Both the position numbers and the translations under genes were made by a program. Source: an uncultured Gammaproteobacteria bacterium (GTDB lineage: Bacteria > Patescibacteriota > Microgenomatia > Woykebacterales > RBG-16-39-9b). From it: a stretch of DNA of 64,000 bases. Location of the stretch: positions 448,137 through 512,136 of the forward strand of contig OZ246414.1 in the NCBI GenBank assembly GCA_965231125.1, in the 5' to 3' direction. Shown one piece after another: positions 38,786 through 62,076 of the stretch; positions within the stretch are counted from its first letter, which is position 1; every line of letters starts with the position of its first letter. Below the pieces are notes generated by a model. The model searched no databases. It was not told where the DNA came from and was given only the letters and a program-made list of their open reading frames with translations.

Positions 38786-38793
38786 GATAGTTT

Positions 38794-40261: not shown

Positions 40262-40335
40262 GGTCGTGTAGCTCAGTTGGTTAGAGCGTACGGTTCACAT
40301 CCGTAAGGTCCCTGGTTCGAACCCAGGCACGACCA
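40262..40335 (+). tRNA. tRNA-Val (anticodon CAC)
   Basis: Cloverleaf GGTCGTG/CACGACC acceptor, anticodon loop TTCACAT, TTCGAAC T-loop; CCA encoded at 40336-38. Confidence 0.85.
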
Positions 40336-40383
40336 CCAAATTGCTTCTTGCCAAACTTCTCTCTTCCTGTTATATAATCAATA

Positions 40384-43115: not shown

Positions 43116-44711
43116 ATGAAAAATTCAAAGTTTAAGAACGCTTTGGTTAGTGTCTATAAGAAAACCCCTCAAGTAATCAAATTTGCCAAAAATTTAACTC
43201 GTTTGGGGTTTAACATTTATGCAAGTTCCGGTACTGCCGAATTCCTTTTTCAAAACAAAATCGAGGTAATTGATGTTGAAAAGCTAACTGGGTTTCCCGC
43301 GATATTGGACCATCGGGTTGTTACACTGCATCCAAAAATTCACGCTGGTATTTTAGCGAAGGAAACAAACGAGAATTTGACGCAGTTGAAAAAACTCAAA
43401 ATACCAAAGTTTGATTTGGTTGTAGTGGATCTGTATCCAGTTTGGAACGGCATTAAATCTAGTGACGTGGAGAAAGCGTTAGACCTTGTTGACATCGGTG
43501 GTCCAACGCTGCTTAGAGGGGCGGCTAAGAATTTTAACAACGGCAGGATTGTTATATGTGATATTAAAGATGCAAACCTTGTTACAAGGCAGTTGAAAAG
43601 GGAGGGCGAGGTTGGTTTTGAAACAAGAAAAAAATTAGCGGCGAAAGTGTTTAAACTGATGGAAAAATATGACGGTGCGATTGCAGAATTTCTCGAAAAC
43701 AAAGCCAAAGTTGAGACTTTAAATTTAAAATTCTCTCAAGAAACAAAGTTAAGATACGGTGAAAATCCTCACCAGAAAGCAAGCTTTTACCAAAATGAAA
43801 ATTCAAAAGACTCTCTTGCAATTCAAAAATTCAAGAAAATCCAAGGCAAAGAGCTTTCCTTTAACAATTTTTTGGACATAGACGTTGCAATATTTGCGCT
43901 AGCCTATCTGGGTGCTCGTAAGCCAGCGTGCGTCATTATTAAGCACACTAACCCGGCCGGATTTTCAATTAAAGAGACCATAAGTAAGGCTTATGAATCT
44001 GCTTGGTACGATGGCGATCCCCAAGCTGCCTTTGGTGGAATTATAGGAGTCAATCGAAAGGTTGATAAAAATCTGGCTAAGAAAATTTTGTTGGGGAGGA
44101 AAGGAGAAAAAAAGTTTCTTGAGATATTAGTTGCTCCATCGGTAGATAGAGATGCTTTAGAAATTCTATCAGAAAGAAAAGATTTGAGGGTGTTGATTAA
44201 CCCCTCTCTAAAAAACCCAAGTTTGTCCAAGGAAAAAGATTTTAAAAAAGTTCGCGGTGGTATCTTGTATCAAGACCCGGATTCTTTGGATATAACCCAA
44301 AGGGATCTAAGGATTGTTACCAAGACAAAACCGACAAAAGTTCAAATTGAAGATCTACTTTTGGCATGGAAGGCGGTTAAGATCTGTAAGTCAAATGCAA
44401 TTTGTATTGTAAAGGGAGGTGTTCTCATTTCTTCTGGAGTCGGCCAGCAAGATAGAAAGGAAAGTTGCAGAATTGCTTTAGCCAAGGCAACTGATATAAA
44501 TAGAGGTAAGTCAAAATCTACTCCGGTCGGTGCTGTTGCTGCATCGGATGCTTTTTTCCCTTTTTCCGATGGGCCAGAAATTTTGATAAAGGCGGGAATA
44601 GAGGCGATTATTCAGCCAGGCGGCTCAATTCGTGACCAGGAAACAATTGATCTCTGCAATCACCACAAGGTCCCGATGGTTTTTACGCAAGTACGATCCT
44701 TCAAACACTAA
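43116..44711 (+). CDS. purH: bifunctional AICAR transformylase / IMP cyclohydrolase
   Basis: MGS-like N-domain (ALVSVYKK...ASSGTA) and AICARFT domain; 531 aa; residues about 175-272 are the source of the inverted copy at 51793-52088. Confidence 0.9.
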   Translation: MKNSKFKNALVSVYKKTPQVIKFAKNLTRLGFNIYASSGTAEFLFQNKIEVIDVEKLTGFPAILDHRVVTLHPKIHAGILAKETNENLTQLKKLKIPKFDLVVVDLYPVWNGIKSSDVEKALDLVDIGGPTLLRGAAKNFNNGRIVICDIKDANLVTRQLKREGEVGFETRKKLAAKVFKLMEKYDGAIAEFLENKAKVETLNLKFSQETKLRYGENPHQKASFYQNENSKDSLAIQKFKKIQGKELSFNNFLDIDVAIFALAYLGARKPACVIIKHTNPAGFSIKETISKAYESAWYDGDPQAAFGGIIGVNRKVDKNLAKKILLGRKGEKKFLEILVAPSVDRDALEILSERKDLRVLINPSLKNPSLSKEKDFKKVRGGILYQDPDSLDITQRDLRIVTKTKPTKVQIEDLLLAWKAVKICKSNAICIVKGGVLISSGVGQQDRKESCRIALAKATDINRGKSKSTPVGAVAASDAFFPFSDGPEILIKAGIEAIIQPGGSIRDQETIDLCNHHKVPMVFTQVRSFKH

Positions 44712-44765
44712 GTGTTATCTTTTCAGTAAAAAAGTTTTGTGTTATTGTAATTAATACATTGCCGA

Positions 44766-45467
44766 ATGTTGGCAGTACCCACATTTGAATTTGTGAAAAA
44801 TATTGCCGTTCTTATATCGGACAAAGGAACAGGGACAAATCTTCAATCAATAATTGATGCTACTAAGGGAGGTGAAATAGACGGAAAGGTGGTTGTTGTC
44901 GTCAGCAACACTTCCAAAGCATTTGGTTTACAAAGAGCGCAGAAGCACAGCATTCCTACTGAAGTATTTGGTTGGAAAAAATATCAAGAATCAGGTAGAA
45001 GTCGGGAGGAATATTCAAAAGATCTAACTAAACTTTTGCAAAAATACAAACTAGATCTTGTTGTTCTCGCCGGTTGGATTTTAATTTTAAAAAAAGAGTT
45101 TTTTGAACAGTTTCCTTATGTTTTAAACATCCATCCCGGTTTAATTCCGGATACGCCCGGAAAAAAAGTCTATTTCCCGGATGGCAAAGAAGCACCGACC
45201 AACGAGCAGATGCACACGGAAAACGCAATAGGAGCTTTTTTAAATGGCGGTTACAAATATGCAGGGTCTACTGTCCATTTCGCAACGCCGACGGCGGATT
45301 GGGGGCCAGTGGTTTTTAGAGATTTTGAGGAAATAAAAAAAGACGATACGGTGGATTCTCTTTACACCCGGCTAAAGAAAAAAGAACACAAAATGTTAGT
45401 AACTGCCGTAAAACTTTTTTGCGAGGGAAAATTAACTGGAGAAAAGATTGGGAAAATAATACAATGA
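44766..45467 (+). CDS. purN: phosphoribosylglycinamide formyltransferase-like
   Basis: IAVLISDKGTGTNLQSIIDA formyltransferase start; the C-terminal part is unusual. Confidence 0.7.
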   Translation: MLAVPTFEFVKNIAVLISDKGTGTNLQSIIDATKGGEIDGKVVVVVSNTSKAFGLQRAQKHSIPTEVFGWKKYQESGRSREEYSKDLTKLLQKYKLDLVVLAGWILILKKEFFEQFPYVLNIHPGLIPDTPGKKVYFPDGKEAPTNEQMHTENAIGAFLNGGYKYAGSTVHFATPTADWGPVVFRDFEEIKKDDTVDSLYTRLKKKEHKMLVTAVKLFCEGKLTGEKIGKIIQ

Positions 45468-46768
45468 ATGTGTTGGTCTTGGGGGGTGGTGGTCGCGAGC
45501 ATTGTCTTGTTTCTGCATACAGCAAAAGTTCTCAGGTAAAAAAATTATATGTGGTTCCAGGAAATGGACTAATGAATTTTTTAGAAGAGAAGCCTATCAA
45601 AATTTATCCTTATTTTAAACCAACTGATAAAAAATCAATTTGGGAAGTAGTTTCAAAAGAAAAGATTGATTTAGTTGATGTGGCTCAAGACGATCCTCTT
45701 GCGGAAGGTACGGTTGATTATTTAGAAAGTAAGGCTGTTGCAACATTTGGACCCAGTCAAAAGGCAGCGCAGTTGGAGTGGAGTAAAGACTGGTCTAGAA
45801 ATTTTATGAAAAGGCACTCGCTTCCAATTCCTAGCTTTGCTACTTTTAACATCGTTAACCAAGCGAAAGATTACATAAAAAAACTCCCCTCGGGGAGTTT
45901 TTTCGTTAAGGCCTCCGGACTTGCTGCTGGTAAAGGGGCGATTAGAGCAGATAATAAAAATGAGGCTTACAAGGCAGTTGAAAGGATGAAAGAATTTGGC
46001 GGGTCCGGTAAAACTTTTTTAATTGAAGAATGCTTGGAGGGTGAAGAAGTATCCGTTTATGCTATTTGCGACGGGAGAAATTTTAAACTGCTAAAGGTAG
46101 CTCAGGACAATAAGCAAGTTTACAATTTCGATGAAGGGCCGAACACTGGCGGAATGGGTGCTAACGCTCCAGCTTTGGTGGCAAATAAGAGTGTTATAAA
46201 TAAAGTAGAAACGATGGTTAAGAAGACCCTGCTTGGGATGGAAAAAGAAGGCAGAATTTACAAAGGAGTGCTTTACCTTGGATTAATTATTACAAAGGAC
46301 GGGGAACCCAAAATTATCGAATTCAACGCTCGTTGGGGCGATCCAGAAACTCAAGTGGTACTGCCCGGTGTAAAAAATGATTATGTAGATTTAGTTACGG
46401 CTTGTATTGATGGGAAACTGGATAAAATAAATATTTCCCAGGACAATAAAACCCGCGTTTGTGTAGTTGGGGCCTGCCGTGGTTATCCAAACGATTATTC
46501 TGCGGTGCAAGGGAAGGAAATTTTTGGTATTAAAGAGGTAATGAACGCTCAAGGAGTCAGCGTTTACGGTGCTGGTGTTAGCCGCAAAGGGGAGCGGTTT
46601 TTTGTTAACGGGGGAAGGGTGTTAAATGTTGTTGGTGAGGGAAAAGATATTATCGAAGCACGCGCAAAAGCCTACAGTTCAATTTCACTTATAAGAATTG
46701 AAGGTAATAATATGCATTATCGAACAGATATCGGTTGGCGTGATGTAGAAAGGAATGCCTATGCTTGA
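45464..46768 (+). CDS. purD: phosphoribosylamine--glycine ligase
   Basis: MNVLVLGGGGREH N-terminus, ATP-grasp; start chosen at the internal Met of the ORF-track frame. Confidence 0.85.
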   Translation: MNVLVLGGGGREHCLVSAYSKSSQVKKLYVVPGNGLMNFLEEKPIKIYPYFKPTDKKSIWEVVSKEKIDLVDVAQDDPLAEGTVDYLESKAVATFGPSQKAAQLEWSKDWSRNFMKRHSLPIPSFATFNIVNQAKDYIKKLPSGSFFVKASGLAAGKGAIRADNKNEAYKAVERMKEFGGSGKTFLIEECLEGEEVSVYAICDGRNFKLLKVAQDNKQVYNFDEGPNTGGMGANAPALVANKSVINKVETMVKKTLLGMEKEGRIYKGVLYLGLIITKDGEPKIIEFNARWGDPETQVVLPGVKNDYVDLVTACIDGKLDKINISQDNKTRVCVVGACRGYPNDYSAVQGKEIFGIKEVMNAQGVSVYGAGVSRKGERFFVNGGRVLNVVGEGKDIIEARAKAYSSISLIRIEGNNMHYRTDIGWRDVERNAYA

Positions 46769-48185
46769 GGATGGAAAACCGAAGGAGGAGTGCGGGGTAT
46801 TTGGTATTTACGCTCCGGGTGAAGATGTTGCAAAGCTTACTTTCTTTGGTCTTTTTACTTTGCAGCATCGTGGTCAAGAAAGTGCCGGTATTGGTGTCCT
46901 GGATGGAAAAAGATACTCACTTTACAAAAAAATGGGCCTAGTGAACCAGGTTTTTAATGAGGAGAAAATTTCCCGGTTAAAAGGGCACATAGCGGTAGGG
47001 CATAATCGCTACTCCACTACTGGAACTAGTAATATAAAAAATGCTGGGCCTTTTGTTTCACATCGAAAAAAAGAAACTTTTATCGTGGCTCACAACGGTA
47101 ATATTGTGAACGCGAACCAGCTGCAGAAAGTTTTAGAAGAAAAAGGGGTCAAGTTCAAATCCACTTGCGATAGTGAGGTTATTTCTGCTCTTATCGCGGA
47201 TGCGAAGCATAAAAATCCTGTCAAAAGAATATTTTCAACCATGTACAAAATGAATGGTGCTTACAGTTTAGTCGTCGGTACTAAAAACGAACTTATCGGT
47301 GTTAGGGATCCGCTCGGTTTTCGACCTCTTTGTTTAGGAAAACTAAACGGTTGGTATGTATTAGCTTCAGAATCTTGCGCCTTTCCGGAAATAGGAGCAA
47401 AACTTATTCGAGATATTGAGCCAGGGGAGGTGGTTGTTATTAATGATAAAGGTTTGAAATCGTACAAATTCAGTTCCAAAAAGAGAGCAAGTTTTTGTAT
47501 TTTCGAGTATGTGTACTTAGCTCGTCCTGATTCAACTCTAAACGCCCGATCCGTCTATTTAACAAGGGAGAGGTTAGGAAAGTTGCTAGCGCAAGAACAC
47601 CCGGCTAAAGCGGACATTGTTATACCCGTTCCGGATTCTGGTGTACCGGCCGCAATTGGCTACTCGCAAGAGTCAGGAATTCCTTACCGCGAAGGGCTAA
47701 TAAAAAATCGTTACATCGCCAGAACCTTTATATTTCCGGACCAAAGAATGAGAGATTTGGGGGTAAAGATGAAACTGTCTCCACTTGGTGAGGTTGTTTC
47801 CGGGAAGAGAGTAGTTTTGATCGATGATTCAATCGTTCGTGGAACTACATCACTGAAAATAGTAAGGTTATTAAAAGAAGCTGGTGCTAGACAGGTGCAT
47901 GTCAGGATTACATCCCCGCCCATGAAGAATCCTTGCTACTATGGGGTAGATATGCCCAAAAAAGAGGACTTTATCGCTGATGGTAATGATATTGAAGATA
48001 TTAGGAAGGAAATAGAGGCGGATTCGTTAGGGTATCTATCTGTTAAAAACATGGTTAAGGCGACGGGGCTGCCGGAAAACTTTTTCTGTACCGCTTGCTT
48101 TACTGGACGCTACCCTTTAAAGGGAAATTATCTTGGCGAACTATCCAAAGAAGTATTAGAAAAAGCTACTGTTAAAACTAGTTAG
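46755..48185 (+). CDS. purF: amidophosphoribosyltransferase
   Basis: CGVFGIY Ntn glutaminase start, PRTase domain (VLIDDSIVRGTT). Confidence 0.9.
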   Translation: MPMLEDGKPKEECGVFGIYAPGEDVAKLTFFGLFTLQHRGQESAGIGVLDGKRYSLYKKMGLVNQVFNEEKISRLKGHIAVGHNRYSTTGTSNIKNAGPFVSHRKKETFIVAHNGNIVNANQLQKVLEEKGVKFKSTCDSEVISALIADAKHKNPVKRIFSTMYKMNGAYSLVVGTKNELIGVRDPLGFRPLCLGKLNGWYVLASESCAFPEIGAKLIRDIEPGEVVVINDKGLKSYKFSSKKRASFCIFEYVYLARPDSTLNARSVYLTRERLGKLLAQEHPAKADIVIPVPDSGVPAAIGYSQESGIPYREGLIKNRYIARTFIFPDQRMRDLGVKMKLSPLGEVVSGKRVVLIDDSIVRGTTSLKIVRLLKEAGARQVHVRITSPPMKNPCYYGVDMPKKEDFIADGNDIEDIRKEIEADSLGYLSVKNMVKATGLPENFFCTACFTGRYPLKGNYLGELSKEVLEKATVKTS

Positions 48186-48232
48186 TAGGGTTTTTGCTTA
48201 GAAATACTTTGGGTAAGATGCAGACAAATCAG

Positions 48233-48261
48233 TTGAATGCGACTCGAAGTTGTCCTACAAT
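48233..48261 (+). promoter_or_regulatory. internal sigma70-like promoter before purL
   Basis: TTGAAT at 48233-38, 17-nt spacer, TACAAT at 48256-61. Confidence 0.35.
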
Positions 48262-48297
48262 ATTGTTATTTAAACTGCTCCAGGGAGCGGTTTTTTT

Positions 48298-51138
48298 ATG
48301 AAGATTTTTAAAGTATACGTTGGCCCAAAAGAAGGTTCGAACTGGCAGCTTGAAAAAGATGTAGAAAACCTGGGCATAAAAGGAATTGGCCAAATAAATA
48401 AGTTTACCGTGTATTGGATTACGGGTTTAACTGAAAAAGAATTAGTAAAATTGGCGACTGGTGTGCTTCATAACGATATTACCCAACAGTATTTTCTAAA
48501 TAATATCCCGAGAGAATTAACTAAAAAAGCTGTAAAAGTTGAGACAGTATCAAACCTAGGGGTTATCGACCCTCGCGAGGACAGTTTAAAAAAAGCAGCT
48601 GCAGATTTAGGCGTAAAAACACAAGTAGGAGTAAAGTTTGGAAATCTTTATTTGTTATACGGAAAAGTTGGTAAGAAGGCTCTTGCAGTAATTAAAGAGA
48701 GGCTTTTAATGAAAAAAATAATTGAACACGAGGTTGCAGCCGGTGAAAAGACCTTTGTGAAAGTCCCGAAATACAAGTTCAAATTAGTAAAAGTTCCAAT
48801 TTTACAAGCAGGTGATAAAAAACTTATGGAACTGTCTTCTAGAGGAGGTTTGTCTTTAAACTTGGAGGAAATGAAAGCAGTTAAAAATTACTTTTATGGC
48901 TTGTCTAGGAACCCTACTGACATAGAACTCGAAACTATCGCTCAGACTTGGTCGGAACACTGTAGCCATAAAAGCCTGAAAGGTTTAGTTATTCATAACG
49001 GCAAAAGAATCGATAATCTTTTAAAATCTTTAATTATAGATCCGTCTAATAAGCTTAATAAAAAACATGTAGTTTCGGCTTTTAAGGACAATGCCGGTGG
49101 TATTGAGATTGGGGATAAGGTGGTTTGTATCAAGGTTGAAACTCATAACCATCCATCAGCAATAGAGCCAGTTGGTGGTTCCGAAACTGGGGTAGGGGGA
49201 GTTATTCGCGACATACTTGGTTTTGGGAAAGGGGCAAAGCCGATATCCAGTATAGTTTGCTTCGGAGTTGGTCCGCAAAATATCAGCTACAACGAACTTT
49301 CTAAGGGTGTTTTACATCCTAAAGCTATTCTTTCTGGTGTGGTGGCCGGGACTAAGAGTTATGGGAACCAAATGGGTATTCCAACGGATTTTTTTCAAGA
49401 CTCTTTAATAGTTCACGAAGATTACGTTGGAAATCCGCTGGTATACTGCGGTACAATCGGTGTTGCTGAAAAGTCGCAGGCTAAAAAGACTCCGCCCAAA
49501 AAAGGGGATCTGGTCTTTCTTTTAGGGGGTTTTACTGGTAGGGATGGTGTTCAAGGGGCGACTTTTTCTTCTTCTAGTCTTCATGAAAAATCAGAAAAGA
49601 TTTCTTCCCAGGCCGTCCAAATTGGTGATGCCATAATGGAAAAAAAGGTTCTTGATGCAATTTTAGAAATTGAGAATAAGCGTCTTTCTACCTGGGTAAC
49701 AGATTGTGGTGGTGGTGGTCTTTCTTCGGCTGTTGGAGAAACCGGTGCAGATATCGGCGTTAGAGTTAATTTAGAAAAAGTACCCAAAAAATATGATGGT
49801 CTGTCTTACACGGAAATTTGGATATCAGAGTCTCAAGAAAGAATGATTGTAGTTGGTAAAATTAAAAATAAAAGTAAAATTTTCGCAATTTGCGAAAGAC
49901 ATAGTGTGCCGGTCACTGTAATCGGAGAGTTCACCGGGAAGAAGAGATTGGAGCTATATTATTCTGGAAAGAAAGTTGCGGATTTAAGTATGAGTTTTCT
50001 TTATGGTGGCTGCCCAAGACTGGAAAGAAGTTCGTTTTGGAAGGAAAAATTTTTTACTCCCCAAAAGAACCTTAAAACAGATTTGTCCAGCACCTTATTA
50101 AAATTGCTAGGAAACCCCGATATTGCTTCTAAACAGGTTTTAGCACATCAATATGACTACACAGTTCAAGGCGCAACTGTCCAAGGTCCGCTAATTGGCC
50201 CAAAAGAAAATGTTCATTCAGATGTTACTATCAGGCAAATTAGTCCTTTTTCTAAGGTAGGAGTCGTGGCCTCAATTTCTGTTAATCCGCACCTGACAAA
50301 GCTTAACCCAAGGAAGATGTCACATTGGGTTATCGTTCAGTCTTTGGCAAAACTTGCAGCTTGCGGGGCGGACATAGATAAGGCGGTTCTTTTAGATAAT
50401 TTTTCTTGGGCCGCGCCGTCCAAACCGGAAGTCTTGGGTGAGCTTGTCGAATCCTTAGCCGGTTGTGAAGAGGCAATTAGAATTCTTAAAGTGCCTTTTA
50501 TATCTGGTAAGGATTCTTTAAATAACGAATATAAAGTTGGTAAAAAAGAAATTCCCATACCTGGGACTTTACTTATAACGGGAGTTGCGCCGATTAAAGA
50601 TGTTAGCAGCTTCACCGCATCCAGTTTTTCTGAGAAGGGGAATCTAGTTTGCCTCGTTGGTTCGGGAGACGGTTCTATGGGTGGGTCATATTTTAACCGC
50701 CTGCACAGTTACGCAAGTGATAAACCAGCCGAGATCGACCTTTTTTACGCCAAAGAACTGTTAACTAAAATCTCTAAGGCAACTGGATCGGGTCTTACTC
50801 AGGCTGCTCTCGCTATCGGAAAGGGAGGATTAGGAGTTGCCTTGGCGAAGATGTGTCTAGGGGGCAATTTAGGAATAAAGATAGATCTGGCAAGGTTGTC
50901 CAGAGGCAGTTTCTTGAATGATGGGCGAATCCTGTTTTCGGAATCCGGTTTACGGTTTGTTTTAGAAGTACGGGAAGAAAATTTCGCAAAGATAAAGAAA
51001 TATTTTGGAGATTTAAATTTTGAAGGAGTCGGTGAGATAACCGAAAAAGATTTTAAAATAAAATTATCAAATCAATCAATAAATCAAGACCTGGCTAGTA
51101 TTGAAGAAAGTTATAGTAAAGTTTTTAGTAAAATATGA
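48298..51138 (+). CDS. purL: phosphoribosylformylglycinamidine synthase II (PurL) with a roughly 190-aa PurS-like N-terminal extension
   Basis: ETHNHPSAIEP..GVGGVIRD PurL core begins near residue 280; N-terminal MKIFKVYVGPKEG... resembles PurS; 946 aa. Confidence 0.8.
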   Translation: MKIFKVYVGPKEGSNWQLEKDVENLGIKGIGQINKFTVYWITGLTEKELVKLATGVLHNDITQQYFLNNIPRELTKKAVKVETVSNLGVIDPREDSLKKAAADLGVKTQVGVKFGNLYLLYGKVGKKALAVIKERLLMKKIIEHEVAAGEKTFVKVPKYKFKLVKVPILQAGDKKLMELSSRGGLSLNLEEMKAVKNYFYGLSRNPTDIELETIAQTWSEHCSHKSLKGLVIHNGKRIDNLLKSLIIDPSNKLNKKHVVSAFKDNAGGIEIGDKVVCIKVETHNHPSAIEPVGGSETGVGGVIRDILGFGKGAKPISSIVCFGVGPQNISYNELSKGVLHPKAILSGVVAGTKSYGNQMGIPTDFFQDSLIVHEDYVGNPLVYCGTIGVAEKSQAKKTPPKKGDLVFLLGGFTGRDGVQGATFSSSSLHEKSEKISSQAVQIGDAIMEKKVLDAILEIENKRLSTWVTDCGGGGLSSAVGETGADIGVRVNLEKVPKKYDGLSYTEIWISESQERMIVVGKIKNKSKIFAICERHSVPVTVIGEFTGKKRLELYYSGKKVADLSMSFLYGGCPRLERSSFWKEKFFTPQKNLKTDLSSTLLKLLGNPDIASKQVLAHQYDYTVQGATVQGPLIGPKENVHSDVTIRQISPFSKVGVVASISVNPHLTKLNPRKMSHWVIVQSLAKLAACGADIDKAVLLDNFSWAAPSKPEVLGELVESLAGCEEAIRILKVPFISGKDSLNNEYKVGKKEIPIPGTLLITGVAPIKDVSSFTASSFSEKGNLVCLVGSGDGSMGGSYFNRLHSYASDKPAEIDLFYAKELLTKISKATGSGLTQAALAIGKGGLGVALAKMCLGGNLGIKIDLARLSRGSFLNDGRILFSESGLRFVLEVREENFAKIKKYFGDLNFEGVGEITEKDFKIKLSNQSINQDLASIEESYSKVFSKI

Positions 51139-51821
51139 AACCTAAAGCAGCGATTTTATTTACCTCGGGAACAAACTGCGATTTTGAGACATCGTTAGCC
51201 TTCGAACTTGCCGGTGGACAACCTGACTTGGTGCATATGAACGACCTTAAGAATTCGAAAAAGTTAGGGAGGTACCAGATGATTATTATACCGGGAGGTT
51301 TTTCTTACGGAGATCACCTAGGGTCCGCCACTATCTGGGCAAACGAACTGAGGAAAAATTTAGAGGAGCAGATTGCGAGATTTGTACTCTCCGGAAGGTT
51401 AATTATGGGGGTTTGTAATGGGTTTCAAGTGCTTGTAAAACTAGGTATTCTCCCTAATACTGGAAAGGATTTTACAATCGAATCTAGCTTGACGGATAAT
51501 TCATCCGGAAAGTTTGAAAGTCGGTTAGTGAGACTTAAAATAAACCAAAACTCTCCTTGCATGTTTACCAAGGGTATCGATATTATTCAAATGCCAGTGG
51601 CCCACGGTGAAGGAAATTTTGTTCCGAAAGATCTAACAGTCTTTAGTAATATAATTCAAGGGGGACAAATTGCGTTGCAATACGTAGACGATCAAGGATT
51701 GCCGACCGGCACCTACCCAGAAAACCCTAATGGCTCGTTCGCCGCTATTGCTGGTATTTGTGACACAACAGGTAGAGTTTTTGGATTAATGCCGCACGCT
51801 GGCTTACGAGCACCCAGATAG
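51135..51821 (+). CDS. purQ: phosphoribosylformylglycinamidine synthase glutaminase subunit (PurQ); the 3' end runs into the inverted purH copy
   Basis: AAILFTSGTNCDFE, GVCNGFQ, MPH catalytic motifs; the last 8 codons and the stop codon come from the inserted purH-derived segment (...MPHAGLRAPR*). Confidence 0.75.
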   Translation: MKPKAAILFTSGTNCDFETSLAFELAGGQPDLVHMNDLKNSKKLGRYQMIIIPGGFSYGDHLGSATIWANELRKNLEEQIARFVLSGRLIMGVCNGFQVLVKLGILPNTGKDFTIESSLTDNSSGKFESRLVRLKINQNSPCMFTKGIDIIQMPVAHGEGNFVPKDLTVFSNIIQGGQIALQYVDDQGLPTGTYPENPNGSFAAIAGICDTTGRVFGLMPHAGLRAPR

Positions 51822-52088
51822 GCTAGCGCAAATATTGCAACGTCTATGTCCAAAAAATTGTTAAAGGAAAGCTCTTTGCCTTGGATTTTCTTGAATTTTT
51901 GAATTGCAAGAGAGTCTTTTGAATTTTCATTTTGGTAAAAGCTTGCTTTCTGGTGAGGATTTTCACCGTATCTTAACTTTGTTTCTTGAGAGAATTTTAA
52001 ATTTAAAGTCTCAACTTTGGCTTTGTTTTCGAGAAATTCTGCAATCGCACCGTCATATTTTTCCATCAGTTTAAACACTTTCGCCGCT
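51793..52088 (-). repeat. perfect roughly 296-nt inverted copy of internal purH sequence (purH 43636..43932)
   Basis: Exact match on the opposite strand; the antisense ORF 51713..52132 reproduces PurH residues AKVFKLM...ARKPAC verbatim; AATG-N-CGCAC microhomology at the left junction. Confidence 0.8.
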
Positions 52089-52877
52089 GAAAAACACGAC
52101 ACAATTGGGGTTGATTTAGTCGCGATGTGCACTAACGATCTAGTACGTTATGGGGTTCGTCCTCTTACATTTTCCTTATACCGGGCTACAAGTAAAATAG
52201 ACAGAAAAATTTTTCAGCAAGTAGTAAAAGGAGTGGTTAAGGGATGTAAGGAGTCTTCCTGCGTTTATATCTCCGGCGAAACAGCCGAGATGCCGGGATT
52301 TTACAAAAAAGATGAGTACGACCTTGCCGGTTTTGCGACCGGTGTGTTTGACCAGGGGAAGCTTATATCCGGGAAGAAAGTACGGGCAGGGGACAAAATA
52401 GTTGGTATAGCGTCAAACGGCCTTCACAGTAATGGGTTCTCGTTAGTTAGAAAAGTTTTCCCACCTCTTAAAATAAGAAAAGATAAGACTCTACTAAAAG
52501 AAATTCTTAAACCGACTCGTATATACGTAAGGACCGTGTTGAGTTTAATGACAAAGTTTGACATTCACGCTGCTGCTCATATAACTGGCGGTGGAGTTTT
52601 TGGAAAGCTGAGTAAAGTCGTTCCGGATGCTCTGACTGCTTCGTTGGAGAGAGACTCCTGGAGTCTGCCCAGTATCTTTAAACTGATTCAAGAGAAAGCC
52701 AATGTCTCGGAGAAAGAAATGTTTTCTACGTTTAACATGGGGTTGGGTATGGTTTTAATTGTTCCTAGAGACCAAGCAATTAAAGTTAGGCAGTTTCTGG
52801 AGAAAAATGGAGAAGCCGCTTTCTTAATTGGCGAAGTTAGGGGTGGTGCCGGCAAAGAAAAGGTAAAGTTAATTTAA
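52017..52877 (+). pseudogene. purM: phosphoribosylformylglycinamidine cyclo-ligase (PurM), 5' end replaced by the inverted purH segment
   Basis: From 52089 the frame encodes PurM from about residue 85 onward (HDTIGVDLVAMCTNDL..., C-terminal PurM domain); the first 24 codons of the ORF are the antisense of purH. Confidence 0.6.
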
Positions 52878-52916
52878 TCCTTGCTCGGTAGATACCACTT
52901 TGCTAAACTGTCCTAC

Positions 52917-54194
52917 ATGAGTCTCGATCTTTTAAAAATAAGTGCTAATACAATTGCCCAAATTATTTCCCGGGCGACCTCTACAGCCTCAACTTTAATA
53001 ATTACTCTTTTAATAACCCACACACTTACTAAAGCTGACTTAGGTATTTTCATTACAATAACTTCTTACGTTGCTTTGTTTTATGTAATAGCGGATTTTG
53101 GTTTAAACGGAGTTTTAATTCGCGAAGCTGCGGGTGATGAGAGGAAAATATCAGACTATTTTGCCAGTTTAGTATCTCTCAGATTGATTCTCTCGATTAT
53201 TACCGTGTTCATTGCTTTGTCAGTCCTTGGTTTTACACACCATTCGGCTTTTATTAAACTAGGGATAATTATCTCCACAGTTAGTATAGTTACCACCTCA
53301 GTTTTTAATACGAGTTTAGCTATCTTTCAAGCCAAATTAAGATATGACCAAGCCGCAATCGCAGATATATTAGGCAGCATCATGACTCTTGCATCCGCCT
53401 ACCTTTTTATAATCTCACATTTTAGTATAATCTTTGTCGTCGTTGCCTACTTGTTAGGTGGTGCAACAAGAGCTTTAGTCTCTCTTTTTCTTGTTGGCTC
53501 GCAAACAACTGGTACGTTTGTCAAGTTCAACACTAATCTTTGGGGACAGATGTTGCTTATTGCTTTACCAATAGGCGCAACTTTAATTTTCAGCGAATTT
53601 GTCGCTAATATCGATAAGCAAATTGTCTATTTGGCAAACTATCAAGCTAAATTACACCTAAATAATGAAGTTGCGGCCGGTGTTTATGGCCTTGCTTACA
53701 ACGTCTTCGGATTCGGTATAATTCTTCCGGCTTTTTTTGTAAACTCAGTGTACCCACTTTTAATAAGGGATAAGAATGAAAACCTTCCTTTACTCAGAAA
53801 CAACTTTTTTAAATATTCTAAAATGTTAGCTTTTGCGGGTGTTTTAATTACTGTTTTGGTTTTGATATTAAGCCCCCAAATAATTGGTTTGTTTGGAAGT
53901 TATAATCAGTCGATTGGTACTCTTAGGATTTTAAGTCTTGGCTACGTATTCTTTTATATAACACCACTTCTTATGTGGACTGTTATTAGTTTGAATAAGG
54001 AAAAGCTTCTTCCTTTCGTTTATGGTTTTGCGGCTGTCTTTAATCTTGCTACTAATATATATTTTGTTCCAAGATTCGGTTTCAATTCTGCTGCAGTTAT
54101 TACAGTTATCACCGAAGCTTTAATTTTTGTTCTACTTTTTGTAATTATGACCCCATTTTTTAAGTTCAAAGGTGAGGAAAATGCGTCTAGTTAA
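52917..54194 (+). CDS. MOP-superfamily polysaccharide/lipid-II flippase (Wzx/MurJ-like)
   Basis: About 12 TM helices with a Wzx/MurJ-like charged-residue pattern; alternative TTG start at 52881. Confidence 0.5.
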   Translation: MSLDLLKISANTIAQIISRATSTASTLIITLLITHTLTKADLGIFITITSYVALFYVIADFGLNGVLIREAAGDERKISDYFASLVSLRLILSIITVFIALSVLGFTHHSAFIKLGIIISTVSIVTTSVFNTSLAIFQAKLRYDQAAIADILGSIMTLASAYLFIISHFSIIFVVVAYLLGGATRALVSLFLVGSQTTGTFVKFNTNLWGQMLLIALPIGATLIFSEFVANIDKQIVYLANYQAKLHLNNEVAAGVYGLAYNVFGFGIILPAFFVNSVYPLLIRDKNENLPLLRNNFFKYSKMLAFAGVLITVLVLILSPQIIGLFGSYNQSIGTLRILSLGYVFFYITPLLMWTVISLNKEKLLPFVYGFAAVFNLATNIYFVPRFGFNSAAVITVITEALIFVLLFVIMTPFFKFKGEENASS

Positions 54195-55452
54195 ATCCCT
54201 TACGTTTATAACAATTGTCTTTTTACCGACATATGTAATTAGATGTAAAAATTTTTCTTCGTGCCCGTCACCAGTCCCCACAACCTTGTTAGAAATTCTT
54301 ATTTTAACTTCATTTTTTAGTTGGTTCTTTTGGGAATTATATTTAGTAAGATCCGGAAAGGACACATTTTCTAATCTTTTGGATCGTCTAAAAAGTCCGT
54401 TAGATCTACCGCTTATTATTTTTTTGATAGTTGCAACCTTAGCTTTGTTTGCAACACCTGATATTAGGGGAGGTTTGGGTTTTTGGAAAGCTTATTTTGT
54501 TGAAGGAAGCTTAGTTTATGTTGTTGTGACGGATATATCGGTTCGTCAACAGAGTTTCATTTGGGCTCTGCAAGGAATTTTAATCTCTGGGGCCTTAGTT
54601 TCAATTTTCTCCATTTTAAACTTTATTTCTCTAGCGGTACATTTAGGTTTAGCTGGTTTAATAGATACTAGGGTACCTAGCGTTTACGCCTTTGCCAACG
54701 CCGTGCCTTTGTATCTTGGACCAATAATAGGTTTGGCCATTGGACTCGCTTTTTATAAATCTAACGAGCAAAAGAAAAAGGAACTTTTTTATCTGTCTAT
54801 AGTTAGCCTGATTTTAATGATTATTGCGGTGCTACTGAGTCAATCAAAAGGAGGCATCGTTGGTATTTTTTCCGTTTTGGTTGTTTGGGTTGGTTACTTG
54901 ACTTACAAATCTTTGTCAAACAGATTTAAAGTGTATTTTAAGCGTGCTACAGTGCTTTTAGTAATTTTTTACTTTCTGGCTAGCCTTTTAGTTTTCTTAA
55001 ATATTAATGGTTTAGTTCCGGAAAAAAGATTTCCTAGCAACAGCCTTTTGAATCGATACTGTATTTGGCAGGGGGCACGAAATATAATTTCGGACCATCC
55101 ATTAACCGGCACGGGTTTGGGCGGTTTTAGTGTTTATTACGAAAAATATCAAAAAACTGAAGCTAAAACATGTCCAAAAAGTAATTATTTTTATCCTCAC
55201 AATATTCTTCTAACTTTTTGGTCCGAGCTGGGGGCACTGGGTTTACTTGCTTTTCTTTGGCTATCGTTTAATTATATAAAGATAAATTCGGAGGGGAAAA
55301 ATAAATTACTCTCGGTAGGGTTTTTAGCTGCACTAGTTTATATTTTTATTCACGGCTTAGTTGACGTCCCGTTTTTCAAGAACGATCTTAGTGTCCAGTT
55401 TTGGCTGCTCGCTAGTTTTGTTACTCTAAACAGTAAAGTTAAGGAGGTGTAG
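54181..55452 (+). CDS. O-antigen ligase / Wzy_C-domain membrane protein
   Basis: YPHNILLTFWSELGALG matches the Wzy_C HN..L....E.G motif; start placed at the ATG preceded by an AGGTGAGG SD (the ORF track gives GTG at 54172). Confidence 0.6.
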   Translation: MRLVKSLTFITIVFLPTYVIRCKNFSSCPSPVPTTLLEILILTSFFSWFFWELYLVRSGKDTFSNLLDRLKSPLDLPLIIFLIVATLALFATPDIRGGLGFWKAYFVEGSLVYVVVTDISVRQQSFIWALQGILISGALVSIFSILNFISLAVHLGLAGLIDTRVPSVYAFANAVPLYLGPIIGLAIGLAFYKSNEQKKKELFYLSIVSLILMIIAVLLSQSKGGIVGIFSVLVVWVGYLTYKSLSNRFKVYFKRATVLLVIFYFLASLLVFLNINGLVPEKRFPSNSLLNRYCIWQGARNIISDHPLTGTGLGGFSVYYEKYQKTEAKTCPKSNYFYPHNILLTFWSELGALGLLAFLWLSFNYIKINSEGKNKLLSVGFLAALVYIFIHGLVDVPFFKNDLSVQFWLLASFVTLNSKVKEV

Positions 55453-56200
55453 GGGAGTTGTCTTGATTTGAGCCAGATATCACCACACTAATTACAGCTT
55501 TCTTGACATTACCTGCTTTATCAGTCGCTTTTATCTCAAGTTTAGATGTGTTCTTGTTAACCGGGTAGTTGAATTTAAAATGTCCGTTTGGGTTAATAAT
55601 AACTTGCAGATTGTTTATAAAAACGATGGTGTCCTCTTCGGTTGCACCCGCAACAACAATGGAAGTTGTACCCACCGAGAAAACCTGCCCATCTTGAGGT
55701 CGAGTTATTTCTAACGATGGCGCTGTATTATCATAAGTTATGTTTGTAGTCTCTTCAAGTTTATTACCGTAAGTATCCAAAACAAAAACTTTAATTAAAT
55801 TTACTCCTTTTTTAAGTAGTACGTCTTTGAATGTAAAATCTCCGTTTTCGGAAGACTGGCTTTTAAGCACCTCGTTTGGACTTACCAATGTTACTTCCTG
55901 ATTGGGTGAGGTGGAGCCTGACACAGTTATTTTTTCTGAGTTCGTAAAATCTGGAAGAGTATTGATTGAGGGTTTTTCTATTGGAAGGTTTAGAGTCTGC
56001 TGCTGTTGGTCAGATTGTTCTGGTTTAGCCACAAAACCAAGTAGGTTTATGAAACTAGTACCCCAAAACCATAAAACAGCTAAAATTACCGCCGTAGCGA
56101 CAGCTATCATTAATACTCGGCGGCTGGGTAGGTTTTCTTCATCTTTCGCTGATCTTAGATATGTATAATGTGGAACTACGCCACGGGCTCTTTTTTTCAT
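55439..56200 (-). CDS. membrane-anchored surface protein with probable Ig-like beta-sandwich domains
   Basis: N-terminal TM then Thr/Ser/Asn-rich beta-rich domains; start moved to Met23 because the longer ORF overlaps tRNA-Thr. Confidence 0.4.
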   Translation of the reverse strand: MKKRARGVVPHYTYLRSAKDEENLPSRRVLMIAVATAVILAVLWFWGTSFINLLGFVAKPEQSDQQQQTLNLPIEKPSINTLPDFTNSEKITVSGSTSPNQEVTLVSPNEVLKSQSSENGDFTFKDVLLKKGVNLIKVFVLDTYGNKLEETTNITYDNTAPSLEITRPQDGQVFSVGTTSIVVAGATEEDTIVFINNLQVIINPNGHFKFNYPVNKNTSKLEIKATDKAGNVKKAVISVVISGSNQDNSPTPP

Positions 56201-56205
56201 ATTCC

Positions 56206-56280
56206 TGGAGCCGATGAGAGGAGTCGAACCTCCAACCTCTCCCTTACGAAGGGAATGCTCTCCCATTGAGCTACATCGGC
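56206..56280 (-). tRNA. tRNA-Thr (anticodon CGT)
   Basis: Reverse complement folds as GCCGATG acceptor, anticodon loop TTCGTAA, TTCGACT T-loop, CCA encoded. Confidence 0.85.
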
Positions 56281-56336
56281 GCTTCTATATTATAGACTAT
56301 TTAGTAAAAATTTGTGATAATTTCTAAACTTTCATC

Positions 56337-56411
56337 TGGAGCACCTGAGGGGATTCGGACCCCTGGTCTCCTCCTTGGGAAGGAGGCGTGTTGCCGCTAC
56401 ACCACAGGTGC
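56337..56411 (-). tRNA. tRNA-Gly (anticodon CCC)
   Basis: Reverse complement: GCACCTG acceptor, anticodon loop TTCCCAA, CCA encoded. Confidence 0.85.
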
Positions 56412-56456
56412 AACTCGCATTTATTTTAACAAGGAAGCTTTTATAAATCCAGAAGT

Positions 56457-56987
56457 TTATGGGATGTTTAAAACTTGACCGGTTGTGATTAGAGGGTTAC
56501 CGTTTGGAAGCTTGCCTATTTTTCCAAAGTTAGCGTCTCGTATTTTTGTCCAAGAAGAGCCTTTACCGTAAAACTTTAGTGAAATTCCCCACAAAGTATC
56601 GCCTTTTGCGACAGTATATTTTCCATTTGGTGCAATTTTTGGCAAGGAGAGTTTTTGTCCGGGAAAAATAACATTTGGATTTTTTAAGTCATTAGCTGTT
56701 GCTATCGAAGTCCAGCGATACCCATTTTTGTAATTTTTGACGGCAATTTTCCATAGAAAGTCACCCTTTTTTACAGTGTACATTTTAGGAAATTTACCTG
56801 GTTTAACAACCCCCTCTTGTTTACCCTTCTCCTTAACTTTGTTAGTTTGCTGGGATTGATGAGTTACACCTTCTGTTACTTTCCCGGCTTCTTTTCTGCC
56901 AAATATGAAGAAAGCGCCGATGAGAATTAAGACGATTACTATTATGACTATTATAGCTGGCGACCGATTTTTAAAAAGATTTCCCAC
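56457..56987 (-). CDS. LysM-domain peptidoglycan-binding protein (two LysM repeats, N-terminal TM)
   Basis: YTVKKGDFLWKIA...GQKLSLP and YTVAKGDTLWGIS...GQVLNIP LysM signatures. Confidence 0.75.
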   Translation of the reverse strand: MGNLFKNRSPAIIVIIVIVLILIGAFFIFGRKEAGKVTEGVTHQSQQTNKVKEKGKQEGVVKPGKFPKMYTVKKGDFLWKIAVKNYKNGYRWTSIATANDLKNPNVIFPGQKLSLPKIAPNGKYTVAKGDTLWGISLKFYGKGSSWTKIRDANFGKIGKLPNGNPLITTGQVLNIP

Positions 56988-57099
56988 TAAACCTCCTTAG
57001 TTGGTAAATATAGCTGCGGCAGAAAAGCGAATGGGCGGTTTTCGAAGGACGTTATTTATTAGATTATCAGGAAAATTTTAGCTAGTCAAGGGGTATTTA

Positions 57100-57175
57100 T
57101 GGCGGGTCCGACCGGACTCGAACCGGCGATCTCCTCTTCGACAGAGAGGCATGTTAACCGCTACACCACGGACCC
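57100..57175 (-). tRNA. tRNA-Asp (anticodon GTC)
   Basis: Reverse complement: GGGTCCG acceptor, anticodon loop CTGTCGA, TTCGAGT T-loop, CCA encoded. Confidence 0.85.
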
Positions 57176-57243
57176 ACTAGGAGCACGTACTCTACCAAAT
57201 TTCTCCCGCCTAGTCAATGTTAGTAATGATATAATTAAAAAAG

Positions 57244-58941
57244 ATGAAAAATGAATTTACAAACAAAAATATCGCAGATTTGCTAAGAAATGTCTCGGCT
57301 GTCTATCAGTTAGAAGAATCCAACCCTTTTCAAGTGAGGGCTTACGATTTAGCTGCGGATTCTATAGAGCACACCAGTAGCGAAATAAAAGAGGTTTGGG
57401 AGAAAGGTAATTTGGATCAAATTCCTCGGCTTGGTGAGCATATTCGGAAATATATTGGCGAATTGTTCAGAACAGGCAAGGTAAAACACTTTGATAAAGT
57501 TTTATCTTCCGTGCCGGAGAGTATGTTTGAGTTTCTTAAAGTTTCTGGAGTAGGGCCTAAAACAGCCTACAAACTTGCAGATGCAGGTGTTGTTAGTATT
57601 GAGGATCTTGAGCGCCGCATTAAAAGTGGCTGGCTCGCGAAAAAAGGGTTCAGTGAAAAAAATCTCCAAAACATTCTTGGCGGGGTAGAAGAGTTTAAAA
57701 GAAAATCCGATCGAATACTGCTTCCGGTTGCGGCTGAGGCTGCAAAAAAAATTATTGATTATTTAAAAAAAGATAAAAGTGCGGTCGCGGCAGATTCATT
57801 AGGAAGCTTAAGAAGAAAGGTTGCGACTGTCGGTGATATAGACATCTCAGTCGCCACACACGAACCCAAAGAAGTCATCGAACACTTTAAAAAATATCCA
57901 GGTACGAGCCGGGTTGTTGAGTCCGGGGATCGCACGGCCACTATATCTTTAAGGGACGGGACTCGGGTGGATTTAATGGTTCAACCACCGGAGCAATACG
58001 GATCACTTTTGCATCATTTTACCGGATCAAAAAACCATAATATTCACATGAGATCGATTGCGCGAGAAAAAGGCTACTCTATTTCCGAATACGGAATACA
58101 AAAAATAAAAACTGGTGAGAGTATCAAATGTGCCACTGAAGACGACGTTTATACTCTTTTTGATATGCAGACCCCGCCACCCGAGTTGAGGGAAGATACT
58201 GGTGAAGTAGAAGCTGCGCTAGCTCATAATTTACCGAAGTTAATTAAACTTTCGGGTATTAAAGGAGACATGCAGACTCATTCTGTATGGAGCGATGGAC
58301 AAAATACAATTGAGGAGATGGCTCTTGCTGCAAGTAGGTTGGGTAGAGAGTATATTGCGTTGACAGATCATTCTTACCCAAGTACAGATTTTAACAAGAG
58401 GTTAAAAGAGATAGAACAATTTAATTACTCCCAAAATAAAATTCGAGTAATTTCTGGACTCGAAGTTAATATAAATGTGGATGCAAGTTTGCAAGTTACT
58501 GATGACGTGCTTGCAAAACATGAAGTTGTTTTGGTTTCGATTCACACCAGCTTTCGCCAACCAAAAGAAGAGATGACCAGGAGGATTATTAAAGCTTTAG
58601 AAAATCCTTACGTGGATATATTTGCCCATCCGACCGGGCGTCTACTTCTTGAAAGAGAAGGGATAGATGCCGATTGGGAGAAGATATTTAAAACTGCAGT
58701 AAAGTTTAATAAATTTTTAGAGATTAATGCTTCTACTGACAGACTTGATCTACCTGATAACTTAATAAGAGAAGCAAAACGCTGTGGAGTTAGATTTTCC
58801 ATTGGTACGGACTCGCATCAAGTTGACCAGCTTTCTCTTATGGAGTACGGTGTGGCGAACGCCCGGCGGGGTTGGGTCGAGGCGAAAGATGTAATTAATA
58901 CCTTGTCATATAAAAAAATAAAGGATATACTGTATTTATGA
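57244..58941 (+). CDS. polX: DNA polymerase X family protein with C-terminal PHP phosphoesterase domain
   Basis: Hh[12 protein letters not shown], Pol-beta-like nucleotidyltransferase region, PHP motifs (HSVWSDGQ...LTDHS); 565 aa. Confidence 0.75.
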
Positions 58942-59486
58942 TAATGTGGGTAGTTGTCGCAGTTATTGTAATTATAGTAACCTATATTTGGAGCGCCTAT
59001 AACAGTTTAGTTACTAGTCGAGTGAGGGTGAAAGAAAGTTGGAGTGGTATTGATGTCCAGCTCAAAAGAAGAAGCGATTTGATACCGAATCTAGTCGAGA
59101 CAGTGAAAGGTTATGAGAAACACGAGAAAGAGGTATTCGAAAAAGTTACCCAAGCGCGAAGTGCTCTTCTAAGTGCCGGAGACGCTAAAGAAGCCGCCGG
59201 TGCAAATAATATGCTTACGGGAGCATTAAAATCTCTATTTGCTGTGGCCGAGGCTTACCCAGAACTCAAAGCATCAGATAATTTTAGGGAGTTGCAGGAA
59301 GAATTATCCGATACAGAAACTAAAATTGCCGCCTCCCGTCAGTTTTATAACACTAATGTTTTAGATTACAATACAAAGATTCAAGTATTTCCGAGTGTTT
59401 TCATAGCAAACCTCTTAGGTTTTAAGCCAGAAGCTTTTTTTGAAGCTGAAGGTGAAGAAAAAGAGCCTGTCAAAGTAGATTTTTAA
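58938..59486 (+). CDS. lemA: LemA-family protein
   Basis: N-terminal TM then [30 protein letters not shown], typical of LemA. Confidence 0.75.
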
Positions 59487-59487
59487 G

Positions 59488-60417
59488 ATGGTCTCAAATT
59501 TAGTTAAGATCTTTGCAGGTTCTGCTCATCCTGATTTATCCAAGCAAATAGCAAAAAATATCGGTAAACGCTTGAGTGAGTCTAAATCCGATCTTTTTCC
59601 CGATGGCGAATGGAGTGTTTGGATAAACGAACCGGTAAACAACGCTCAGGTTTTTGTTGTTCAATCCACTAGTCCGCCGGTAAATTCCAATTTAGTAGAA
59701 CTTTGCCTTATTGCCGATGCTCTTCGTCGTGAAGGAGCACGCCGAATTTGCGCAGTCATTCCCTATTTTGGTTATGCCCGTCAAGAGAGGCAATCTCGGA
59801 CAGGGGAGCCAATCAGTGCTAAAGTAGCGGCGGATATTTTGGTGGATTCTGGGATAACAAAAGTAATTACAGTAGATCTTCACGCCGAACCAATCGTCGG
59901 TTTTTTTAATGTCCCCGTAGTTCATCTTTCCGCTTTAAAACTTTTAGCCCAAAGAATAAAGAGATTGAGTTTGAAAGATCCAGTCGTAGTTTCACCAGAT
60001 GTTGGTGGGGTCCGCCGAGTCCGCAATTTTGCCTACCATTTAGGTTATCCAATTGCCGTAGTAGAAAAACGCCGCTTTTTTGAACAGAGGGACAAAACCG
60101 AAGCTATGACCATGGGTGGCGATGTTGTTGGAAAATCGGCTATAATTTTGGACGATCTTATCTCTACCGGTGGGACAATAGTTGAGAACGCGAAAATTTT
60201 AAAAGATGCTGGAGTTAAGAAAGTAATAGTTTGCGCCACTCACGCTGTTTTTACAGGTAATTATAAAGAAAAATTAGGGGATGATATTGTCGAAAAAGTT
60301 ATTGTTACGGATACGATTCCAGTTCCAGCCGAGAAAAGATTTAAAAAGTTAGAAGTAGTCTCCTGTGCCAATCTTTTGGCCGAATCCATAAAGCAAGATT
60401 ATATCTACAATAGATAA
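59488..60417 (+). CDS. prs: ribose-phosphate pyrophosphokinase
   Basis: KIFAGSAHPDLSKQIA start, PRPP-binding DLISTGGT motif. Confidence 0.9.
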   Translation: MVSNLVKIFAGSAHPDLSKQIAKNIGKRLSESKSDLFPDGEWSVWINEPVNNAQVFVVQSTSPPVNSNLVELCLIADALRREGARRICAVIPYFGYARQERQSRTGEPISAKVAADILVDSGITKVITVDLHAEPIVGFFNVPVVHLSALKLLAQRIKRLSLKDPVVVSPDVGGVRRVRNFAYHLGYPIAVVEKRRFFEQRDKTEAMTMGGDVVGKSAIILDDLISTGGTIVENAKILKDAGVKKVIVCATHAVFTGNYKEKLGDDIVEKVIVTDTIPVPAEKRFKKLEVVSCANLLAESIKQDYIYNR

Positions 60418-60478
60418 AAGGCTTGATGGTTCGTCATTGTTTAATTAAGTTGATCAAACCTAAAGGGTTATTTACTAC

Positions 60479-60509
60479 TTGATTTGTCTCATAGTCAATT
60501 TGTATAATC
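60479..60509 (+). promoter_or_regulatory. sigma70-like promoter before the pyrF-like gene
   Basis: TTGATT, 18-nt spacer, TATAAT; strong SD GGAGGTG before the ATG at 60561. Confidence 0.3.
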
Positions 60510-60560
60510 TCTGAGAACCAAACAATTTAATAACCGCGGCTCGTCGGTAGTGTTGGAGGT

Positions 60561-61295: not shown

Positions 61296-61308
61296 AAGGA
61301 GGTTTTGA

Positions 61309-61929: not shown

Positions 61930-62076
61930 ACGGGAGAAGGGAAATCGCGTGGTTGTGGTTTCGCGCAAGCGACTACGACCACGCGGTATCCACATATCAT
62001 CTTTATCAGCTTTTAGTTATTACATTAGCAGAAGAATACTCGTAAAGTTTATATAATTTTGTTAGAATAGCTTGTT

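Follow-up and report, generated by a model that had tools for sequence, protein, structure and literature searches.

An exact inverted copy of a purH segment at the purQ-purM junction of an uncultivated patescibacterium: a probable template-switch scar that should disable both genes

The window analysed here, a stretch of 64,000 nucleotides (nt) from contig OZ246414.1 (positions 448,137 to 512,136), carries a block of purine-synthesis genes in which the junction between purQ and purM is occupied by an inverted copy of 296 nt taken from inside purH, 7.86 kb away. By NCBIfam assignment the genes run guaB, purA, purH, purN, purD, purF, purL, purQ, purM and then wzx, and the family profiles are matched end to end by all of them except purQ and purM, the two genes that meet at the copy. 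We consider it likely that the structure is a genuine and recent rearrangement, that purQ and purM were adjacent in the ancestor, and that a template switch or a templated repair event turned both into pseudogenes.

A repeat search over 40-56 kb of the window gave a single inverted pair, with arms of 302 nt at 43637-43938 and 51787-52088, and no further repeats of 30 nt or longer. Direct comparison of 51793-52088 with the reverse complement of 43637-43932 found 296 of 296 nt identical; beyond this exact core there is a single mismatch (C at 51792 versus A), followed by five matching bases, TAATG. An exact match of such length cannot have arisen by chance. An earlier note on this DNA, made from the letters alone, had described the exact inverted purH copy at the purQ-purM joint and set its purH start at 43636; the copy is as described, while the start is 43637. 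The donor segment (43637..43932, forward strand), called R below, covers codons 174-273 of the 531 codons of an intact purH. Since purH matches the NF002049 profile over its full length (positions 3-510 of 510, NCBIfam), the purH copy is the original and the segment at the purQ-purM joint (R', 51793..52088, reverse strand) is the exact reverse complement inserted there. The opposite polarity, with R' as the original and the purH copy derived from it, was considered and rejected, purH being full length and conserved through R. The segment between the repeat arms (43933..51792, given on the forward strand) is 7.86 kb long and holds the 3' part of purH, purN, purD, purF, purL and the 5' part of purQ; its orientation is not fixed by short-read graphs. 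The truncated purQ takes its seven foreign codons and its stop (TAG, 51819-51821) from R', which also provides the false 5' end of the open reading frame (ORF) annotated as a PurM of 286 residues. The antisense ORF at 51713-52132, which runs across R' and reproduces a fragment of PurH, was recovered as it had been reported.

The effect on both genes is severe. The truncated purQ (51135..51821, forward strand) keeps 221 native codons up to MPH, then reads AGLRAPR and stops, and its product covers TIGR01737 only up to position 203 of 228. Aligned with homologues of 251-255 residues, the window protein has ...GRVFGLMPH-AGLRAPR and a stop where the relatives continue MPHPERFIFP...YKNAVDYFK, so the foreign tail is seen both in the sequence and against the relatives, just as the earlier note had it. 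The protein is without the near-invariant P-E-R (present in at least 90% of sequences) and about 31-33 C-terminal residues. The missing glutamate is one which we take to be the catalytic Glu of the class-I amidotransferase triad, in the His-Pro-Glu motif. The purM remnant (52089..52877, forward strand) consists of 262 C-terminal codons in a frame that is still open, and PurM restarts in frame at 52089 (EKHDTIGVDLVAM, EKHDTIG), as previously stated. The number of lost N-terminal codons had been put at roughly 85; alignment to relatives gives about 75, the near-invariant DGVGTKL included. The remaining protein matches TIGR00878 only from position 70 of 332 (305 bits), and AIRS_C is the sole precomputed domain on its record (P0001). 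PurQ having lost the catalytic Glu together with its C-terminus, and PurM its N-terminal ATP-binding and dimerisation part, both should be inactive pseudogenes; we infer this loss of function from the missing parts. The view that the inverted copy disables purM is in keeping with the absent N-terminal domain, and purQ would be disabled along with it.

Whether such a structure exists in cells or only in an assembly is the first question to be settled, and we hold it very probable that it is present in the cells' DNA. The exact chimeric PurQ with its AGLRAPR tail is recorded from NCBI (on a contig of 915,171 bp), from the Joint Genome Institute (JGI) and from Logan. Across the left side, JGI contig Ga0136847_11181438 (metagenome 3300010391) corresponds to window 43834-51891 and a Logan contig of SRR6155503, identical in two samples, to window 43903-51822; the Logan contig of SRR6155504 likewise stops at 51822. 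Across the right side, JGI contig Ga0136847_12347957 starts at 51990, and the Logan contigs of SRR6155503 (in two samples) and SRR6155504 start at 52059, the right junction being crossed by JGI and Logan contigs at 100% identity. Each JGI end lies at exactly 99 nt, and each Logan end at exactly 30 nt (k=31, hence k-1), within the exact repeat core, which is the pattern of a true two-copy repeat in a de Bruijn assembly. Because the contigs end at depth k-1 and not at the junction, there is no competing branch and no intact allele in those graphs; an intact purQ-purM allele at appreciable depth would have split them at the junctions.

These contigs bear directly on the idea that the NCBI contig contains an assembler mis-join or a gap-filling error and that the true purQ-purM is intact. 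A gene-interrupting inverted repeat is a common symptom of misassembly, and the inserted piece, at about 300 nt, is similar in length to a read or insert. However, the same two junctions come out of the JGI pipeline and of Logan (k=31) from at least three runs, the exact chimeric PurQ is found in NCBI, JGI and Logan, and no contig or protein with an intact junction was found. An error of this kind is highly improbable, and the assembly chimera, left standing by the earlier note, is excluded by the presence of both junctions in three assemblies and at least three read sets with no competing branch.

Protein collections agree with the graphs. Among about 5.8 billion proteins there is no other PurQ more than 73% identical to the chimeric one and no other PurM more than 56% identical to the truncated one, and the 90% cluster of the chimeric PurQ has a single member. 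An intact purQ-purM of the same population, which the earlier note had named as the sequence that would speak against the structure, turned up neither among these proteins nor in the contigs of the assemblies. A short-query protein search for the intact PurQ C-terminus of the species also returned none, a weak negative, since its eight scored candidates did not include the known P0121. Exact-pattern scans of metagenome and genome contigs with junction-side anchors gave no match, a result that is uninformative on the intact allele, as the JGI contigs scanned evidently do not cover sample 3300010391. In the sampled population no allele other than the one with the inverted copy could be detected.

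The main caveat concerns the library: an in vitro chimera, made by phi29 multiple displacement amplification (MDA) or another amplification, could dominate the locus, with the junctions present in reads and not in cells. Chimeras of MDA are inverted in 85% of cases, join mostly segments less than 10 kb apart and show 2-21 bp of complementarity at the joint (PMC1855051), and each junction described here matches this form. Bacteria of the candidate phyla radiation (CPR), in which the nearest loci place this organism, often come from low-biomass filtrates (the related locus L085 is from a 0.1 um groundwater fraction), and a literature search under the run and sample identifiers did not find the provenance of the runs. 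Nevertheless, the rate of MDA chimeras is about one per 10-22 kb of product, at scattered positions (PMC1855051), so that at any one locus they make up a minority of molecules. In the present data neither junction branches, be it at k=31 in two to three runs or at k~99 in the assembly of JGI, and no trace of an intact allele is seen. The founding molecule would also need two coordinated switches 296 nt apart that restore both strand and direction.

Sequence variation points the same way. The JGI contigs differ from the window by 20 single-nucleotide polymorphisms (SNPs) in 19 kb (43834-62877), placed on both sides of the lesion, and the structure is common to both; population sequence variants therefore carry the same structure, and many template genomes must have been sampled. 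Twelve of the differences are nonsynonymous, six synonymous and two non-coding. The nonsynonymous to synonymous ratio is 7:2 in pur genes, a count that takes in both SNPs of the purM remnant, versus 5:4 elsewhere, numbers too few for a conclusion: the ratio in pur genes hints at relaxed selection, with counts that are far too small. Taken together, the unbranched junctions and the missing intact allele make an MDA chimera, which the earlier note had regarded as an equally classic source of such a structure, decidedly unlikely, and they favour real DNA, the other option it had offered.

If the structure is real, its joints can be read for the way in which it arose. At the left junction (51787..51797, forward strand) the window has TAATGcCGCAC against TAATGaCGCAC on the purH antisense strand, a match at 10 of 11 positions. 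The purQ of a closer relative, Ca. Woykebacteria GCA_040903525.1 (locus L089), reads ATGCCGCATCCAGAA at this site, from which it follows that CCGCAC is native to purQ and that the crossover lies within CGCAC, with 5 nt of exact microhomology and 10 of 11 nt overall. The microhomology reported earlier for this joint is therefore present, as an exact CGCAC with TAATG after one mismatch. At the right junction (52080..52089, forward strand) 52088 is the last position identical to purH, and GAA AAA CAC GAC at 52089 continues the purM frame. The terminal codons of R', F-A-A, coincide with conserved PurM positions of the pattern '..AF(A)..KH', and the TIGR00878 alignment already begins at residue 23 (Ala) of the ORF. 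At the right joint, microhomology of a few bases is thus plausible, if unproven.

From this scar we infer a template switch, which could have proceeded as follows. The ancestral array would have been tRNA-Val, guaB, purA, purH, purN, purD, purF, purL, purQ, purM and wzx. A 3' DNA end extending in purQ, past ATGCCGCAC, may have come off its template, and about 7.9 kb further back the freed end would have annealed to purH, on the opposite strand, through 5-11 nt of microhomology. After 296 nt had been copied from the purH strand, synthesis would have returned to the original template within purM, some 320-350 nt past the point of departure. On balance the purQ 3' end and the first ~75 codons of purM would be deleted, along with any spacer between them, and the inverted purH copy would serve as filler. 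The event may have been a replicative double template switch of the type known as fork stalling and template switching or microhomology-mediated break-induced replication (FoSTeS/MMBIR), or else the repair of a break by synthesis-dependent microhomology-mediated end joining (SD-MMEJ) with a templated insertion. In the fork version the nascent leading strand would copy the lagging-strand template behind it, giving the inverted orientation; GC skew is positive throughout and the genes are co-oriented, which suggests a fork moving from left to right. The window also encodes PolX, a family-X DNA polymerase with a PHP domain (57244-58941), 5 kb downstream of the lesion and conserved in all relatives; this gap-filling repair polymerase could be relevant to repair of the end-joining type in these genomes.

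The template-switch reading presupposes that purQ and purM once stood side by side, and the relatives bear on this point. The collections hold no close relative of this organism; the nearest loci have its gene order and place it in Patescibacteria (CPR), near Ca. Woykebacteria / Woykeibacteriota. Two distant relatives (54-56% identity in PurM, 39-42% in wzx) share the series CTP synthase, MerR, ileS, ftsW, L21, L27, parB, lepB (reverse strand), tRNA-Val, purM, wzx and wzy, and the pur block is missing at this place in both. The window keeps the upstream series of these relatives (31510-40157), the tRNA-Val(CAC) (40262..40338, forward strand), a conserved left landmark which in the distant relatives is directly followed by purM, and the downstream series; guaB..purQ sits between this tRNA and purM. 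In L089, the closer relative (81% identity in purF, 74% in PolX, 61% in wzx), the order is guaB, purA, purH, purN, purD, purF, purL, an intact purQ of 253 residues and, 60 nt on, wzx. No purM is found within 20 kb in L089, nor any purM remnant. Since the block of L089 adjoins wzx, the position of the pur block beside wzx predates the split of L089 from the lineage of the window. The lesion itself is young, R' being 100% identical to R and the purM remnant open and conserved. A search of the window, including the stretch from lepB to guaB, found no purM 5' remnant. The simplest history starts from an ancestral guaB..purQ-purM-wzx, from which the sister deleted purM and in which the window lineage received the replacement. 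On the evidence of synteny, purQ and purM would thus have been adjacent in the ancestor, and the PurQ end and the PurM start would have gone in one event, as one contiguous piece, which supports the replacement described in the earlier note.

Several further features of these loci were noticed. The more distant loci (L085 at 9826-10001, L086 at 7017-7201, L087 and L088) have lepB (reverse strand), tRNA-Val, purM and wzx without the guaB..purQ block. Downstream in L086, on the opposite strand, lies a divergent purA (27% identity). Where purine genes sit varies within this clade. In L089 (10001-10830) and in L090 purM has been lost at the same position, with guaB..purQ intact. L089 has a 123-residue ORF without a Pfam match between purH and purN (3197-3568); the window lacks it and has a purH-purN spacer of 54 nt. 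At the left edge of the pur block of the window, a 29-nt tRNA-like 5' fragment (40233-40261; GGTCACTTAGCTCAGCTGGTAAAGGACCT, acceptor and D-arm) abuts the tRNA-Val(CAC) and is missing in L085 and L086, which have the tRNA. A further small duplication or rearrangement may have left it as a scar.

The size of the lost piece can be estimated from the same alignments. At least ~325 nt should be gone, that is 33 PurQ codons and the stop plus ~74 purM codons, before any spacer is counted, and 291-296 nt were inserted (291 nt between CAC and GAA). The replacement had been described as one of equal length, a claim that these figures do not support; the two lengths are similar, not equal.

A real structure might still have another origin. 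The guaB..purQ block could have been moved beside purM, or a tandem-inversion duplication could later have been trimmed, in which case purQ and purM were never adjacent and there was no equal-length replacement. In the distant relatives purM follows tRNA-Val directly, without the pur block; adjacency of purQ and purM is rare in general, being seen in 2 of about 84 PurQ-motif loci, both distant, with motif distances of 454 and 1067 nt versus 306 nt here; and the 29-nt tRNA-like fragment beside tRNA-Val hints at other local rearrangement. On the other hand, the block already lies immediately upstream of wzx in L089, so this location is older than the split, while the R/R' pair (100% identical) and the open purM remnant are recent. 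One event with two switches also needs fewer steps than a duplication followed by two deletions of ~8 kb. We therefore regard such an origin as unlikely.

A number of points weigh against the history preferred here, a real double template switch between formerly adjacent genes. The support for the structure consists of assembled contigs, not mapped reads. SRR6155503, SRR6155504 and JGI 3300010391 may come from one project or DNA preparation, and independence is shown between assemblers and runs, not between biological samples. The contigs cover the junctions singly, the whole of R' being spanned only in the window's own assembly, and each single junction (inverted, less than 10 kb, microhomology) has the form typical of an MDA chimera (PMC1855051). 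No hairpin or quasi-palindrome of note, a possible fork-stalling site, was found at the breakpoints. A relative with adjacent purQ and purM was not found among close lineages, and a search of genome and metagenome contigs for such adjacency gave nothing closer than 53% identity. Replicative switching and break repair would leave the same scar, and the sequence cannot separate them.

It could also be supposed that the repeat has a function, either as an invertible cassette or as a regulator at the RNA level that acts through a 296-bp duplex in the operon transcript. The 7.86 kb of pur genes lie between the repeats, R and R' on one transcript would pair into a long, perfect duplex, and the orientation of the segment is hidden from short-read graphs. 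No recombinase or invertase gene was found among the neighbouring genes, though, and either orientation leaves purQ and purM truncated, the flipped one also splitting purH; a site-specific invertible element is thus not what is seen here. The repeat occurs in no relative, and the junctions fall within conserved catalytic motifs, which fits damage rather than design. We find a functional element very hard to credit. Homologous recombination between the arms could nevertheless invert the 7.86-kb segment and split purH, so if the structure is what we take it to be, the new inverted repeat of 300 nt sets up more inversion or deletion of the remaining pur operon.

What does the lesion mean for purine synthesis? 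In a real structure of this kind two de novo steps would be disabled while the rest of the operon is intact, and the erosion of a pathway in a reduced genome would be caught at a dated stage. The surrounding pathway had been called otherwise complete, which is unsupported: purE, purK, purC, purB and purS are not in the window, and a second purM may exist elsewhere. The PurL of the window (48298-51138, 946 residues) matches TIGR01736 from residue 188 and thus has an N-terminal extension of ~187 residues, with the Pfam domain FGAR-AT_linker on its record; the window shows no separate purS. That the sister has no purM at the same place suggests either that selection on purM is relaxed or that another copy exists elsewhere, and for both the window lineage and the sister there is either a second purM or an incomplete pathway. 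In practical terms, the annotated 'PurQ' of 228 residues and 'PurM' of 286 residues should be treated as pseudogenes in curation, and metabolic reconstructions that count them both would wrongly infer purine prototrophy. We lean, if only slightly, towards a wider interpretation: that a population-wide, natural double template switch has just knocked out purQ and purM, that the sister lost purM independently, and that replication-based template switching is one of the ways in which the genomes of ultra-small symbiotic bacteria are reduced.

Other parts of the window deserve a brief mention. Two adjacent genes on the reverse strand (24-2291) resemble succinyl-CoA ligase or ATP-citrate lyase (CoA_binding and Ligase_CoA in one pair of domains, ATP-grasp_2 and Citrate_bind in the other), which is unexpected for a CPR genome of ~0.9 Mb. 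A complete dcw cluster, mraZ to ftsZ, extends over 4614-26826 with extra transglutaminase-like, FemAB-like and Glu racemase genes, and is followed by a PIN-domain gene (27062-27502) and several ORFs without family matches (27640-31258). GC content, about 0.41 overall, dips to 0.335 at 2001-4000 and to 0.36 at 54001-56000, over a Wzy-type polymerase gene.

No new class of system is opened by this finding, and the structure is best judged against processes already described. It resembles the insertions attributed to FoSTeS/MMBIR (PMC8421209, PMC11293582) in having a short inverted copy from less than 10 kb away at the breakpoint, with microhomology at the left joint, and would share with them the two switches in cis that lead back to the original template with a flank deleted. 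Such events are known mainly from human, yeast and experimental E. coli and Salmonella, whereas here an apparently fixed natural allele is seen in an uncultivated member of the CPR; if real, it offers a clean natural case of a mutational process seen so far chiefly at human disease loci, in yeast and in enterobacteria kept in the laboratory. The insert of 296 nt is also longer than in most templated insertions of MMBIR, and the mechanism is read here from the scar alone. Inverted templated insertions at repaired breaks, of the fold-back or SD-MMEJ kind (PMC11724301), likewise leave an inverted filler with loss of the sequence at the break, between two microhomology joints, of which the right one is here no more than plausible; the yeast events in that work are mostly 5-34 bp with a template within tens of bases, as against 296 nt from 7.9 kb here. 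Chimeras of phi29 MDA (PMC1855051) share the inversion, the distance of less than 10 kb and the priming at short complementary sequences. They are, however, single, rare at any locus and irreproducible, in contrast to two coordinated junctions that form the only allele in several assemblies.

Closer to bacteria, the tandem inversion duplications of Salmonella and E. coli studied by the Roth laboratory are reportedly formed when synthesis changes from one template strand to the other at short inverted sequences, giving inverted copies that later undergo asymmetric deletions. After a tandem inversion duplication a region is present three times; in the present case no more than 296 nt are duplicated and there is a net loss of sequence. 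The lesion is also like the reductive pseudogenisation of symbiotic and ultra-small bacteria, being recent, lying in genes of purine synthesis and having a sister without purM at the same position. Reductive gene loss usually proceeds through point mutations, small indels and plain deletions, and unlike that usual course the present case preserves the scar of the mutational mechanism. The kind of rearrangement is thus already known, and what is notable is that it stands unmutated and apparently fixed in an uncultivated bacterium of reduced genome, in a gene that has been lost in the sister as well.

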